A DNA stretch of 64,000 nt from Escherichia phage sutha. The stretch lies in sequence record PV245934.1; one strand, written 5' to 3'. Both the position numbers and the translations under genes were made by a program. Under the pieces are notes generated by a model. The model searched no databases. It worked only from the letters and a program-made list of their open reading frames with translations, and was not told the DNA's origin. Of the stretch, positions 11,512 through 61,244 are shown piece after piece. Within the stretch, counting starts at the first letter, position 1. Every line of letters starts with the position of its first letter.

Positions 11512-13020
11512 ATGGATATTAAAGTACATTTTCACGACTTCAGTCATGTACGCATCGATTGTGAAGAGAGCACGTTCCACGAATTAAGAGATTTCTTTTC
11601 GTTTGAGGCCGATGGATATAGGTTTAATCCTCGCTTCAGATATGGCAACTGGGATGGACGAATCCGTCTTTTAGATTATAATCGTCTTCTTCCGTTTGGT
11701 TTAGTCGGGCAAATTAAAAAGTTCTGTGATAACTTTGGCTATAAAGCCTGGATTGACCCACAAATTAACGAAAAAGAAGAATTATCAAGAAAAGATTTTG
11801 ATGAATGGCTTTCTAAATTAGAAATCTATTCAGGAAATAAAAGAATTGAACCACATTGGTATCAAAAAGATGCAGTGTTCGAAGGATTAGTTAATCGTCG
11901 TAGAATTCTTAATCTTCCAACATCTGCAGGTAAATCTTTAATTCAAGCTTTGCTTGCACGTTATTATTTGGAAAATTATGAAGGTAAAATTCTTATCATT
12001 GTTCCAACAACTGCTCTGACAACTCAGATGGCTGATGACTTTGTTGACTATCGTTTATTCAGTCATGCAATGATAAAGAAAATCGGTGGTGGAGCATCAA
12101 AAGATGATAAATATAAAAATGATGCGCCAGTCGTTGTTGGTACATGGCAAACTGTAGTAAAACAGCCGAAAGAATGGTTCTCACAGTTTGGAATGATGAT
12201 GAATGATGAATGCCATCTTGCTACAGGAAAAAGTATTTCATCTATCATATCAGGTTTAAATAACTGTATGTTTAAATTTGGTTTGTCCGGTTCATTACGC
12301 GATGGCAAAGCCAATATCATGCAGTATGTTGGAATGTTCGGTGAAATATTTAAGCCAGTAACGACTTCTAAATTAATGGAAGATGGGCAAGTAACTGAGT
12401 TAAAAATTAATAGTATTTTTCTTCGCTATCCCGATGAGTTCACTACTAAATTAAAGGGAAAAACTTACCAAGAAGAAATAAAAATTATTACTGGGCTCAG
12501 TAAAAGAAATAAATGGATCGCTAAATTAGCTATTAAACTTGCACAAAAAGATGAAAACGCTTTTGTCATGTTTAAACACGTATCGCACGGTAAAGCTATT
12601 TTCGATTTAATTAAAAATGAATACGATAAAGTTTATTACGTATCAGGGGAAGTTGATACCGAAACACGCAACGTAATGAAAACCCTAGCTGAAAACGGTA
12701 AAGGAATAATTATAGTAGCTAGTTATGGTGTATTTTCTACTGGTATTTCAGTTAAAAATCTGCATCACGTTATTTTAGCACACGGTGTTAAATCTAAAAT
12801 TATTGTATTGCAAACAATAGGTCGCGTATTACGTAAGCATGGTTCTAAAACAATCGCAACGGTCTGGGACCTCATTGATGATTGCGGTGTTAAGCCAAAA
12901 TCTGCTAATACGAAAAAGAAATACGTTCATTTGAATTATCTTTTAAAACACGGCATTGATCGTATTCAGCGATACGCAGATGAAAAATTTAATTACGTAA
13001 TGAAAACAGTTAATTTATAA
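11512..13020 (+). CDS. uvsW: UvsW RNA-DNA and DNA-DNA helicase
   Basis: 502 aa; SF2 helicase motifs (Walker A PTSAGKS, DECH box MMMNDECH); T4 UvsW size. Confidence 0.93.
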   Translation: MDIKVHFHDFSHVRIDCEESTFHELRDFFSFEADGYRFNPRFRYGNWDGRIRLLDYNRLLPFGLVGQIKKFCDNFGYKAWIDPQINEKEELSRKDFDEWLSKLEIYSGNKRIEPHWYQKDAVFEGLVNRRRILNLPTSAGKSLIQALLARYYLENYEGKILIIVPTTALTTQMADDFVDYRLFSHAMIKKIGGGASKDDKYKNDAPVVVGTWQTVVKQPKEWFSQFGMMMNDECHLATGKSISSIISGLNNCMFKFGLSGSLRDGKANIMQYVGMFGEIFKPVTTSKLMEDGQVTELKINSIFLRYPDEFTTKLKGKTYQEEIKIITGLSKRNKWIAKLAIKLAQKDENAFVMFKHVSHGKAIFDLIKNEYDKVYYVSGEVDTETRNVMKTLAENGKGIIIVASYGVFSTGISVKNLHHVILAHGVKSKIIVLQTIGRVLRKHGSKTIATVWDLIDDCGVKPKSANTKKKYVHLNYLLKHGIDRIQRYADEKFNYVMKTVNL

Positions 13021-13033
13021 GGGCTTCGGCCCT

Positions 13034-13276
13034 TTGGAGAAAAAGATGTTACTAGAATTTAAACAATTTCTTTATGAAGCTTCTATTGATGAATTTATGG
13101 GTAAAATTGCCTCTTGTCAAACATTAGAAGGTCTAGAAGAACTTGAAGCTTATTACAAGAAAAGAGTTAAAGAAACTGAATTAAAAGATACTGATGACAT
13201 CTCTGTGAGAGATGCTTTGGCAGGAAAAAGAGCTGAATTAGAAGATTCAGACGATGAAGTAGAAGAAAGCTTTTAA
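13034..13276 (+). CDS. UvsW.1 small acidic protein
   Basis: 80 aa ORF directly after uvsW, as T4 uvsW.1. Confidence 0.75.
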   Translation: MEKKMLLEFKQFLYEASIDEFMGKIASCQTLEGLEELEAYYKKRVKETELKDTDDISVRDALAGKRAELEDSDDEVEESF

Positions 13277-19485: not shown

Positions 19486-20580
19486 ATGGCAATTGTTAAA
19501 GAAATAACTGCTGATTTAATTAAAAAGTCCGGTGAGAAAATTTCAGCCGGACAGAGTACTAAATCAGAAGTAGCAACTAAAACATACACTGCCCAGTTTC
19601 CAACTGGGCGTGCTAGTGGTAATGACACTACAGGGGACTTCCAGGTAACAGATCTATATAAGAATGGATTATTATTTACTGCATACAATATGTCATCTAG
19701 GGATTCTGGAAGTCTTAGATCGATGAGATCTAACTACTCTTCTTCATCTTCGAGTATTTTAAGTACAGCTAGAAACACTATTAGTAGTACAGTATCAAAA
19801 CTATCAAATGGATTAATATCAAACAATAATTCAGGAACAATAAGTAAAGCTCCTGTCGCAAATATTCTTTTACCGAGATCTAAATCTGATGTTGATACAT
19901 CATCACATAGATTTAATGATGTTCAAGAAAGTCTTATCAGTAGAGGCGGAGGTACTGCTACTGGCGTGCTAAGTAATATTGCTTCAACTGCAGTATTTGG
20001 GGCACTGGAAAGTATAACGCAAGGTATAATGGCTGATAATAATGAACAGATTTATACGACAGCCAGAAGTATGTATGGCGGTGCTGAGAATAGAACTAAA
20101 GTGTTTACATGGGATTTGACTCCACGTTCAACAGAAGATTTGATGGCTATTATCAATATCTATCAATATTTTAACTATTTTTCTTATGGTGAAACGGGCA
20201 AATCTCAATATGCTGCTGAAATAAAGGGGTATTTAGATGATTGGTATCGTTCTACATTAATTGAACCTTTATCTCCGGAAGACGCGGCTAAAAATAAAAC
20301 ACTATTTGAGAAAATGACATCGAGTTTAACTAACGTTCTAGTAGTTTCAAACCCGACAATTTGGATGGTGAAAAACTTTGGTGCAACATCTAAGTTTGAT
20401 GGAAAAACGGAAATATTTGGCCCATGTCAAATACAGAGCATCAGATTTGATAAAACACCTAATGGTAACTTTAATGGATTAGCTATTGCTCCAAACCTCC
20501 CTAGTACATTTACTCTTGAGATTACTATGAGAGAAATTATCACGTTAAACCGTGCTTCTTTATATGCGGGGACTTTTTAA
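19486..20580 (+). CDS. 48: baseplate tail tube cap gp48
   Basis: 364 aa, T4 gp48 size and position. Confidence 0.9.
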   Translation: MAIVKEITADLIKKSGEKISAGQSTKSEVATKTYTAQFPTGRASGNDTTGDFQVTDLYKNGLLFTAYNMSSRDSGSLRSMRSNYSSSSSSILSTARNTISSTVSKLSNGLISNNNSGTISKAPVANILLPRSKSDVDTSSHRFNDVQESLISRGGGTATGVLSNIASTAVFGALESITQGIMADNNEQIYTTARSMYGGAENRTKVFTWDLTPRSTEDLMAIINIYQYFNYFSYGETGKSQYAAEIKGYLDDWYRSTLIEPLSPEDAAKNKTLFEKMTSSLTNVLVVSNPTIWMVKNFGATSKFDGKTEIFGPCQIQSIRFDKTPNGNFNGLAIAPNLPSTFTLEITMREIITLNRASLYAGTF

Positions 20581-21500
20581 TGTATTCTTTAGAGGAATTT
20601 AATAATCAAGCAATAAACGCAGATTTCCAACGTAATAATATGTTTAGCTGCGTTTTTGCGACAACTCCATCAACTAAAAGCTCTTCGTTGATAAGTTCAA
20701 TTAGCAACTTTTCTTATAATAACTTGGGTCTAAATTCAGATTGGTTAGGATTGACTCAAGGCGATATTAATCAGGGAATTACCACGCTAATTACTGCTGG
20801 CACACAAAAACTGATAAGAAAATCAGGGGTTAGTAAATATCTTATTGGTGCCATGAGTCAACGTACAGTTCAAAGTTTATTGGGCTCATTTACAGTTGGT
20901 ACATATTTAATTGACTTCTTTAACATGGCATATAACTCATCTGGATTGATGATATATTCTGTAAAAATGCCAGAGAATAGATTATCCTATGAAACTGACT
21001 GGAACTATAATTCTCCTAATATTCGTATAACTGGGAGAGAATTAGACCCTTTGGTTATTTCATTTAGAATGGATTCAGAAGCTTGTAACTATCGTGCAAT
21101 GCAAGACTGGGTTAACGCTGTTCAAGACCCAGTAACTGGATTGCGTGCTTTGCCACAAGATGTCGAGGCAGATATTCAGGTTAATCTTCATGCTCGTAAT
21201 GGATTACCTCATACTGCGGTGATGTTCACTGGATGCATTCCAGTGTCAGTGAGCGCTCCTGAGTTATCATATGATGGAGATAACCAAATAACTACATTTG
21301 ATGTTACTTTTGCGTATAGAGTCATGCAGGCTGGGTCGGTTGATAGACAAGCTGCGCTTGAGTGGCTTGAATCTGCTGCTATAAACGGTATTCAAAGCGT
21401 TCTCGGAAATAGTGGAGGTGTTACTGGATTATCTAATTCGCTTTCACGACTTAGTAGATTAGGGGGAACTGCTGGAAGCATTTCCAACATTATACTATGA
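20580..21500 (+). CDS. 54: baseplate tail tube initiator gp54
   Basis: 306 aa, TAATG overlap with gene 48, position as T4 gene 54. Confidence 0.88.
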   Translation: MYSLEEFNNQAINADFQRNNMFSCVFATTPSTKSSSLISSISNFSYNNLGLNSDWLGLTQGDINQGITTLITAGTQKLIRKSGVSKYLIGAMSQRTVQSLLGSFTVGTYLIDFFNMAYNSSGLMIYSVKMPENRLSYETDWNYNSPNIRITGRELDPLVISFRMDSEACNYRAMQDWVNAVQDPVTGLRALPQDVEADIQVNLHARNGLPHTAVMFTGCIPVSVSAPELSYDGDNQITTFDVTFAYRVMQAGSVDRQAALEWLESAAINGIQSVLGNSGGVTGLSNSLSRLSRLGGTAGSISNIIL

Positions 21501-40937: not shown

Positions 40938-41669
40938 ATGAAATCTGGAATATATGCTATTATAAACACTAAAACCAATAAGCACTATATAGGAAGTGCA
41001 ATTAATTTTGAAGAACGATGGAAACGACACTTCAAAGATTTAGATAATGGAAATCATCATTCAATAAAGCTGCAACGTTCTTATAATAAGCATGGGAAAG
41101 ATGCTTTCGTATGTAAAATCATAGAAGAACTTCCATACGAAAAATCTATCATTATTGAACGTGAAAATTATTGGATACATGAATATGACTCAAAGGAAAA
41201 TGGGTATAATATAGCAGACGCATCGTTTGGGGATACCTTATCTCATCACCCAAGAAAGCAAGAAATCCTTAATAAAATTTCAAATGCAATTAAAAATAAT
41301 AATTCAAAATTATCACCAGAAGAACTTAAGCAAAAACATGGTAGACCTAAAGATATTAAAGGTAAAACTATAGAAGAACACTATGGGTTAGATCGTGCTA
41401 TAGAAATAAGCAAAAAGTTCCAAGAAAGAAACGCTGCACTTAATATGAAAGGCATCAATAATCCATATTATGGACAGACACATACCAATGAAGTTAGAAA
41501 ACGAATTTCTGACTCACAAAGAGGTAAAAAGAAACCCCATCTAAGAGTAAGTATAGATGGGGTAGAATATCCAACAATAGCAGAAGCTGTGCGTCAAACC
41601 GGAATAAGCAGAAAACTTATATCTAAAAGATGTGCTCTAGATTGTTGGGAATCATATTTATACTGCTAA
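40938..41669 (+). CDS. free-standing GIY-YIG homing endonuclease, I-TevI-like catalytic domain with NUMOD/HTH C-terminus
   Basis: 243 aa; first ~100 aa ([21 protein letters not shown]...RWKRHFKDL...[12 protein letters not shown]...IIERENYWI...[13 protein letters not shown]) closely parallel I-TevI; C-term [22 protein letters not shown] and [22 protein letters not shown]; antisense to flanking nrdA/td. Confidence 0.85.
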
Positions 41670-42238: not shown

Positions 42239-43254
42239 CATTATGTTCAGATAAGGTCGTTAATCTTATCCCGGAATTATATCCAGCTGCATGTCACCAT
42301 GCAGAGCAGACTATATCTCCAACTTGTTAAAGCAAGTTGTCTATCGTTTCGAGTCACTTGACCCTACTCCCTAAAGGGATAGTCGTTAGGCATTTATGTA
42401 GAACCAATTCCACTTATCAGATTTTACACGGTAAGTAACTAATCCTGATGAAATTTCAAAATGTCTAGCCGCATCGGCTGCACATTCAAAAATAATCCCA
42501 TCGCATGAAATCTTTTTGATGTTAGCTGGCTTTTTGCCTTTCATCTTTTCAGATAGTTTAGTTTTAGTTTTTTCTGAATGTTTGTGATTAAAGAACGGGT
42601 TATTTTCACCTGAACGTTTTCGGCACTTTCCACAAGTATCGGCCGAAGATGGTATGCGAACACCGCATTTACAAAACTTGTGGTTTTCTGGATTCCATCG
42701 GCCATTTTTACTTCCGTGTTTACCATAAAGAGCTTTCCGACCATCAGGACCAAGCTTAAGCATCTTAGCTTTAACAGTTTCAGCTCGTTTCTTAGCAATT
42801 TCTTCTTTTAATGGATGATTTGAAAGCACATCGCCAAAAGACGCATCAGCAATATTATATCCATTAATTTTAGAATTTAGCTCTTTAATCCAAAAATTTT
42901 CTCGTTCAATAATCAAATCTTTCTCATATGGAATTTCTTCCAGTACAGAGCATTCAAAAACATTACCATGTTTATTAAAAGACCTTTGAAATTTTATAGA
43001 AGAGTGAACACCGTTTTCAAGGTCTTTAAAATGTCTCTTCCATCTTTTCTCAAAATCTTTAGCACTTCCAACATACACTTTACCGTTTAAAGTGTTTTTA
43101 ATCTGATAAATTCCGCTTTTCATAAACACCTCTTTTTATATAGAAGTATTTATTAAAGGGTAGTCCTACAATTTAGCACGGGATTGTCTACTAGAGAGGT
43201 TCCCCGTTTAGATAGATTACAAGTATAAGTCACCTTATACTCAGGCCTAAATTA
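42239..43254 (-). mobile_element. group I self-splicing intron of td carrying I-TevI
   Basis: 1016 bp between exon 1 end (...VDVFLG, GGT then TAA in intron) and exon 2 start (CTACCG); 5' intron sequence TAATTGAGGCCTGAGTATAAGGTGACTTATACTTG as recalled for T4. Confidence 0.9.
42386..43123 (-). CDS. intron-encoded GIY-YIG homing endonuclease I-TevI
   Basis: 245 aa from [35 protein letters not shown]...; zinc finger CKCGVRIPSSADTCGKC; C-term HTH ...VTYRVKSDKWNWFYINA; matches I-TevI by recall. Confidence 0.93.
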   Translation of the reverse strand: MKSGIYQIKNTLNGKVYVGSAKDFEKRWKRHFKDLENGVHSSIKFQRSFNKHGNVFECSVLEEIPYEKDLIIERENFWIKELNSKINGYNIADASFGDVLSNHPLKEEIAKKRAETVKAKMLKLGPDGRKALYGKHGSKNGRWNPENHKFCKCGVRIPSSADTCGKCRKRSGENNPFFNHKHSEKTKTKLSEKMKGKKPANIKKISCDGIIFECAADAARHFEISSGLVTYRVKSDKWNWFYINA

Positions 43255-60285: not shown

Positions 60286-60504
60286 TTATGTTTTGCGACT
60301 AAATTGTTCATAGTGCTGAATTACCTCTCTTAAGCATTTGCATGTGAATGAAAACTTTTTAGCTACACCACATTCAAATATATGTTCTCTTAAATCGCGT
60401 GTATCGGTATATCCCATCTCAACAATAAAATGCCGTATTAGATTTTTATCTTTATCATTGAGAGAATTAAAATAATCAGATTTTGAATTAATTTCCCTGG
60501 CCAA
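60286..60504 (-). CDS. hypothetical protein (arn.x position), Cys-containing
   Basis: 72 aa ORF. Confidence 0.55.
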   Translation of the reverse strand: MAREINSKSDYFNSLNDKDKNLIRHFIVEMGYTDTRDLREHIFECGVAKKFSFTCKCLREVIQHYEQFSRKT

Positions 60505-60784
60505 ATTGAATCACCTTCAGTTGACGTTTTAACTCTTTTATCATTTCTTCGTTCATCGCAATATAAAGATCGCGTAAAGCAGGTTTTAGCGTTCCATTTA
60601 CTGGAGAACTAAATGGACATACATAATCTTTTCCTACAAGCTTTTTGGTGAATTCCATATCACAGAACTTAAATCCCGGCTCATTGGTATAAATTCCCCA
60701 ATTAGTTGACATCATTTTATTAGCATATTCCAGTGCCTGGATTTGATTCATAATTCCATCAATTTGAAACTTTTTAATATTCAT
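60488..60784 (-). CDS. hypothetical protein (arn.x position)
   Basis: 98 aa ORF. Confidence 0.6.
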   Translation of the reverse strand: MNIKKFQIDGIMNQIQALEYANKMMSTNWGIYTNEPGFKFCDMEFTKKLVGKDYVCPFSSPVNGTLKPALRDLYIAMNEEMIKELKRQLKVIQFGQGN

Positions 60785-61244
60785 TAGTAAAGGTCCTCAG
60801 AGTAAAGTTCTTTTTCACTACCACCACGTTCAATACGTACTTGTCCAGCGTAAGTTGCAATAATCATTGCTTCTTCACGTGTCCAATAATTACTATATTG
60901 GTCAATAAACCCTTGGTCATCATCACAAACTTGCTGAGTAACTAATTGAGGTTTAACTACATCTAAAACTTCTGCCATATCTTTAGAATAATGACGAGCA
61001 CCTGGAATAATAAGAGTTCGTCCATCTTTTAATTTAAAACGGTTGGCTGCGCAAACAATTCGTCGTTGATACTTTTGATTTTCATCCCAATATGCAGTCT
61101 GCCAACAGATTTCAGGAACTTCATCTAAACATTTTGTTCTGTATATTCACCACCGTAAGAAGCTAATTTAGCAGCCAGACTTTCCGGAGTCTCACGAGAT
61201 AAAGCTTTATCTAACAGAGCTAAACGTTCTTTAAAAGTTTTCAT
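60784..61244 (-). pseudogene. hypothetical gene disrupted by an apparent 1-nt frameshift in a T4/A4 homopolymer at 61132-61135
   Basis: Hand translation: ATG at 61244 gives 39 codons ending at TAG (61125-61127); the +1 frame stays open from 61149 to 60784 with no ATG before MAEVL...; one extra A in GAACAAAATG joins them into ~153 aa. Confidence 0.5.

Follow-up and report, generated by a model that had tools for sequence, protein, structure and literature searches.

The arn.3 orthologue of the T4-like Escherichia phage sutha is interrupted by a one-base frameshift

Between arn.4 and arn.2 of Escherichia phage sutha (GenBank:PV245934.1; the stretch of 64,000 nt analyzed here is referred to as the window), the reading frame of a conserved phage gene breaks after 39 codons and continues in the −1 frame. 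Since the gene order from motA to asiA agreed with that of T4 gene for gene, the split gene, as judged from sequence, corresponds by orthology to T4 arn.3, which comes second in the arn.4-arn.3-arn.2-arn.1-arn operon. The lesion is an ordinary, unprogrammed one-base deletion and not a special decoding signal. We infer, with a probability of roughly 0.55, that it is a genuine mutation of very recent date that inactivated a dispensable accessory gene, a recent null mutation of this kind being slightly more likely than a sequencing error. The finding itself has small consequences, namely that arn.3 of this genome is to be annotated as frameshifted; a by-product of the analysis, a resemblance between the N-terminal module of Arn.3 and an antitoxin, may outweigh the lesion in value.

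Organization of the arn region and identity of the split gene

The window is a segment of a T4-like (Tequatrovirus) genome, for which the best record matches over 24 kb had about 94% identity and none was identical. The features of the region are listed in Table 1. The arn.4 product was 100% identical to T4 Arn.4 over 68 aa, and the Pfam domain Phage_T4_Y16F had been precomputed on proteins identical to it. Its TGA overlaps the ATG of arn.3 (ATGA), and the stop codon of arn.3 in turn overlaps the ATG of arn.2 (TAATG), with a GAGGA located 9 nt upstream of the latter.

Table 1. Features of the region from gp52 to asiA, with the parts of the split arn.3 (window positions)
Feature	Position	Strand	Basis or remark
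gp52	63818–62490	minus	
motA.1	62493–62344	minus	
motA	62216–61581	minus	
arn.4 orthologue, 109 aa	61241–61570	minus	ORF list; PHROG 1594, E=2.5e-54
Split arn.3	between arn.4 and arn.2	minus	
arn.3 5′ fragment, 39 codons plus premature TAG (61127–61125)	61125–61244	minus	ATG at 61244–61242; variable N-terminal helical module
Lesion, TTT run versus TTTT in relatives	61127–61129	minus	alignment with relatives
Out-of-frame 31-codon ORF, not Arn.3	61029–61124	minus	ATG directly after the premature TAG (TAGATG)
arn.3 3′ fragment, 120 sense codons plus TAA (60786–60784)	60784–61146	minus	−1 frame; conserved T4_Y16D core, no start codon of its own
Sole remnant of the Arn.3 frame with an ATG start, 64 aa	60784–60978	minus	ORF list
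arn.2 orthologue, 98 aa	60488–60784	minus	98% identity to T4 Arn.2; PHROG 1844
arn.1-like ORF, 72 aa, TTG start	60286–60504	minus	PHROG 4452
arn	60202–59924	minus	
asiA.1	between arn and asiA	minus	
asiA	59762–59490	minus	

Because the two pieces when joined matched PHROG 839 (restored Arn.3, E=2.1e-73) and T4 Arn.3 spanned both frames, its residues 1–39 aligning at 46% and residues 40–152 at 97% identity, the split by these comparisons is not a chance pattern. In addition, PF26092 (T4_Y16D) had been precomputed on Arn.3 homologues and on the 64-aa remnant of the window. T4 arn.3 (GenBank:NP_049871, annotated as [quoted passage not shown], with PF26092 and PHROG 839) lies at the same position of the locus, downstream of motA, and has the same stop/start overlaps with its neighbours, but is uninterrupted, whereas the window copy is frameshifted and carries a different allelic module in its N-terminal 39 residues.

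In the literature found, Arn.3 has no assigned function (bioRxiv 10.64898/2026.06.19.733364). Homologues were found in more than 1,500 phage records, which came from T-even relatives as well as from diverse other phages that infect Escherichia, Klebsiella, Salmonella, Pseudomonas and other hosts, among them Pseudomonas and Serratia phages with genomes of about 275–280 kb. These homologues share the core only, approximately residues 43–153, and their alignment showed R61, A66, A67, R84, H85, Q111, G112, F113, D115, R123 and Q135 to be invariant. An AlphaFold model of the intact protein (pLDDT 88) had helices at residues 4–16 and 20–28. No significant structural neighbour of the model was found in the PDB; searching BFVD returned uncharacterised phage proteins and, as weak hits, domains of "large polyvalent proteins", and sequence searches of Pfam (a copy without PF26092), NCBIfam and the PDB came back empty.

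Several other features of the window were noticed. The C-terminal 43 residues of the 72-aa ORF at the arn.1 position are those of T4 Arn.1, and an extra 39-aa ORF of the DUF7230 type (60311–60192) sits between this ORF and arn. A gene for an I-TevI-like GIY-YIG endonuclease (40938–41657, plus strand), 89% identical to I-TevI, occupies the td position, and a second such gene (42389–43123, minus strand), with 46% identity, adjoins nrdA. No counterparts of T4 segD, I-TevIII, mobE, nrdB.1, nrdA.1 and segG were found in the window.

Position of the lesion and distribution of the allele

A first-pass annotation, prepared from the letters of the window alone, had proposed that a single gene between arn and motA was split by a one-base frameshift in a short homopolymer, and our results support this. 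The ATG at 61244 overlapping the upstream stop, the 39 codons behind it and the TAG at 61125–61127 were recovered both on the sequence and in the ORF list. The second frame had been given as open from 61149 to 60784; such a frame exists, but it starts at 61146, the triplet 61149–61147 being the TGA that bounds it. That it holds no ATG before 60978 was likewise borne out, GTG and TTG being absent from this part as well. The 64-aa product that could start at this ATG covers less than half of the conserved core, R61, A66, A67, R84 and H85 being among the residues missing. As to the repair, one base added at the A run 61132–61135 had been predicted to fuse the frames. One added base does join them, the second frame being −1 relative to the first, into 153 codons; the lost base, however, is a T, TTTT having become TTT at 61127–61129, where the last T of the run also forms the first base of the premature TAG. 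The restored protein therefore does not read EQKCLDEV across the junction. In the alignment with phages JLBYU22, AV122 and NR1, the relatives carry AATGTTTTAGATG and the window carries AATGTTTAGATG, and every match among the phage records listed for this locus spans one base more than the window query.

Alignment to T4 and related phages, which the first-pass annotation had proposed as a check, showed that the orthologues are continuous, and in no relative examined was the gene split at this point into two ORFs with their own starts. T4 arn.3 has 152 codons, and uninterrupted genes of 153–155 codons were present in JLBYU22, AV122, NR1, Lv5cm, Shinka and eleven BASEL phages; in all of these, T4 included, arn.3 is annotated in one piece of 459–468 nt. 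In terms of continuity, the window gene is thus split at codon 39/40 against a single ORF of 152–155 codons in the family. Ten contigs having an identical arn.4 were also inspected, and all ten had an intact neighbour of 153–155 aa.

The locus was matched by 642 phage records, and alleles were compared among the records listed, none of which gave a gap-free match to the 81-nt stretch around the lesion. Exact-pattern scans detected neither the TTT nor the TTTT allele in IMG/VR and GTDB genomes, and in JGI metagenomes detected the TTTT allele only, on three contigs; TTTT was also carried by L018. The TTT allele was absent from E. coli genomes and from exact-protein look-ups, and an exact look-up of the gp37 protein of the window gave no match either. 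Among the sequences searched, then, the TTT allele was found nowhere else. Apparent cases of a split orthologue were rejected: contig L012 is truncated by the contig end and carries TTTT, L013 is interrupted by a scaffold gap of Ns, and the 51-aa ORF of L023 and L025 is an unrelated extra gene preceding a complete arn.3. This extra ORF, located between arn.4 and arn.3 in direct orientation, is present in Bas35 as well; L023, L025 and Bas35 are related to the L015/L016 lineage described below.

Origin of the lesion

With one T restored, the window protein became 100% identical to Arn.3 of phage Shinka, and at the DNA level the restored gene had 14 synonymous and 0 non-synonymous differences from that of Shinka, and 5 synonymous and 0 non-synonymous differences from that of JLBYU22. 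The lack of non-synonymous differences indicates that arn.3 was under purifying selection until just before the window sequence, and therefore that the lesion is either very recent or artefactual. An old, decaying pseudogene was rejected, as there was neither relaxed constraint nor any further disabling change.

On the reading that we prefer, replication slippage presumably removed one T from the run of four, in the isolate or its immediate lineage and not in the course of ancient decay. Translation from the normal ATG would stop after 39 codons at the TAG made by the shift, and the T4_Y16D core (residues ~43–153) would not be produced because the −1 frame in which it lies has no usable start codon. 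Terminating ribosomes would most likely re-initiate at the adjacent out-of-frame ATG and make a meaningless 31-aa peptide, so that the phage would yield the 39-aa N-terminal module only and lack the Arn.3 core altogether. That the core is translated on its own was rejected, since no start precedes 60978 and the ATG beside the TAG is out of frame. Spontaneous frameshifts at short homopolymers (Streisinger slippage) were classically defined in T4 rII. They likewise consist of a single-base change in a run of identical bases that leads to a premature stop, but the run is short here (4 nt) and nothing marks the site as a hot spot. In addition, as some 340 nt would go untranslated, there might be a polar effect on the genes from arn.2 to arn, which are transcribed together in T2 (bioRxiv 10.64898/2026.06.19.733364); arn.2 retains its own GAGGA Shine-Dalgarno sequence.

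Other disrupted copies bear on whether the gene can be lost, and count in favour of a real mutation. In a metagenomic T4-like contig (L029, coverage 32), the segment from the core through arn is deleted, while a 40-aa remnant of the N-terminal module stays (2501–2623); in a Tequatrovirus lineage represented by seven contigs, including a 168,444-nt assembly (L015/L016), the 5′ part of arn.3 is rearranged; a human gut contig (L014) has two in-frame stops in the N-terminal module; and in a 5x-coverage assembly (L017), AAA has become AAAA by an insertion at 2527, around codon 71 of arn.3. From these lost or disrupted copies we infer that arn.3 is dispensable in nature, and the frameshifted copy of the window adds to the evidence. 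It was also noticed that in L015 (2400–2830) and L016 the first ~220 nt of arn.3 are inverted relative to arn.4 and the remaining arn.3, creating a chimeric ORF of 104 aa on the opposite strand.

The strongest competitor of a real mutation is that the arn.3 of the phage is in truth intact, with TTTT and 153 codons, and that one T was under-called in the consensus; we put the chance of this somewhat below even. The TTT allele was found only in the window, its site is a homopolymer, and the gene bears no secondary degenerative changes; these three points count against a real mutation, and a miscalled base or a faulty assembly would produce precisely the same picture. Also in favour of an artefact, adding a single base restores a known protein exactly, with 0 non-synonymous differences. 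There is precedent for such errors, as old T4 database entries hold frame-shifted arn.3 translations (P0022) and the T4 record flags sequence discrepancies around uvsW. On the other hand, the run is only 4 nt long, and of the T4 proteins that could be matched to the window only three change frame, namely uvsW/uvsW.1, gp54 and arn.3. Among the genes that could be compared with T4 and Lv5cm across 64 kb, the break in arn.3 is the only unshared one, which argues against an error-prone platform, and the other net indels relative to T4 and Lv5cm appear, from sequence context, to be intergenic. The sole other rare one-base indel, that of gp54, is confirmed by an independent genome. By these comparisons the assembly looks clean rather than error-ridden, and in a clean assembly one would not expect the consensus to be wrong at a single 4-nt run only.

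The two other frame changes are as follows. The gene for gp54, the baseplate-tail tube initiator (20580–21500, plus strand), encodes 306 aa as compared with 320 in T4, a one-base deletion (TTAAT to TTAT) near 21492 having turned the last 16 residues into "IL"; of 412 matching records, one had this allele, that of Salmonella phage Lv5cm (GenBank:MZ150757), in which it is annotated as a 921-nt gene. The uvsW (502 aa, stop at 13018–13020) and uvsW.1 (ATG at 13047) genes are separate ORFs within 11512–13276 (plus strand), with a hairpin, GGGCTTCGGCCC, between them; about 394 phage records show this split form without any difference, whereas the T4 reference has a fused gene of 587 aa.

That full-length Arn.3 would still be made, through a −1 shift of the ribosome or through transcriptional slippage near 61128–61146, has in our view a negligible chance of being correct. 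Like the −1 frameshifting sites of dnaX and the phage tail chaperone genes G/GT, the locus has overlapping frames, here by 22 nt, and a sensible fusion protein, which is the normal Arn.3. Unlike them, it lacks a slippery heptamer, a stimulatory structure and conservation of the arrangement: an in-frame reading of the 22-nt overlap ATATACAGAACAAAATGTTTAG revealed no heptamer of the form X XXY YYZ; the minimum free energy of the downstream 121 nt (−19 kcal/mol) was no better than that of shuffled sequences (−19.8 kcal/mol, z=0.25); and the two-frame arrangement occurred in no relative examined. Programmed −1 frameshifting was rejected on the first two of these grounds. Runs of 3–4 nt are too short for polymerase slippage, and transcriptional slippage was rejected because the runs here are only of this length. 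The first-pass annotation had left the choice among a sequencing error, a genuine pseudogene and a slippage-prone site; the last of these finds no support, the run being only 3–4 nt and the allele being present in no other sequence found.

The N-terminal module and its resemblance to CmdA

The N-terminal module of Arn.3 is variable and exchangeable, and the type found in the window was present with at least 99% identity in 73 phage records. The 39-aa product matched the PADLOC profile PD-T4-9_B at positions 1–30 of 77 only (36 bits, E=1.9e-9), and 9 of 41 members of the Arn.3 family matched this profile. TPR repeats that resemble the 39-aa peptide did not match PD-T4-9_B, and the match of the module is therefore specific relative to these look-alikes. 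PD-T4-9 corresponds to CmdTAC, a toxin-antitoxin-chaperone system that defends against T-even phages; CmdA, encoded by the second gene of cmdTAC, is the antitoxin, and consists of an N-terminal helix pair and an unstructured tail (PMC9519451, PMC11618068). An N-terminal helix pair is predicted in both CmdA and the window module, the latter matching the first 30 positions of the CmdA profile. Unlike CmdA, the window module has neither the unstructured chaperone-addiction tail nor the ClpX degron, arn.3 adjoins arn.4 and arn.2 instead of genes for the ART toxin CmdT and the SecB-like CmdC, and the module is fused to the Y16D core in relatives. The resemblance to CmdA is a lead suggested by profile matching, not a result, and literature text searches found no paper linking the arn operon to CmdTAC.

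Among the BASEL T-even phages, only Bas35 (WilhelmHis) and Bas38 (AugustSocin) have been published to escape CmdTAC. When Bas35–Bas45 were compared, each of these two had a distinct Arn.3 N-terminal module that is not of the T4 type, and the T4-type module was found in eight CmdTAC-sensitive BASEL phages and in T4. The association between non-T4-type modules and escape (2 of 3 versus 0 of 8, p ~0.055) is confounded by relatedness, and CmdTAC resistance does not vary with how strongly a module matches CmdA. Resistance conferred by the window-type module was rejected as an explanation, being contradicted by Bas36, which has this type in an intact Arn.3 and is reported to be sensitive.

By analogy with CmdA, Arn.3 might be a two-module counter-defence protein whose N-terminal hairpin mimics the toxin-binding N-terminus of the antitoxin, a real frameshift freeing an active 39-aa hairpin and shedding the core; we regard this as a long shot. 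Very unlikely, too, is a functional uncoupling in which the frameshift is real and tolerated or selected, the 39-aa module works alone, maybe as a CmdA-like antitoxin mimic, and the phage can do without the Y16D core, or fares better without it, on the isolation host. Such an uncoupling would agree with the PD-T4-9_B match that the TPR look-alikes do not share, with the break falling at the junction of module and core, with the deletion contig L029, which retains only the module remnant, and with the non-T4-type modules of both escaping BASEL phages. It is opposed by the sensitivity of Bas36 and by the relatedness that confounds the correlation; moreover, the comparison with CmdA was made through a PADLOC profile, and the allele is unique and shows no sign of selection. 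We keep to an ordinary recent null mutation as the somewhat likelier account of the lesion. If the CmdA match is functional, the natural module variants, including the truncated allele, would be ready-made reagents for studying a phage antitoxin mimic. A CmdA-like motif was also found inside a 320-aa protein of Klebsiella phage Geezett, at residues 105–132 (L030, 2698–3660), and in a 298-aa relative (P0124).
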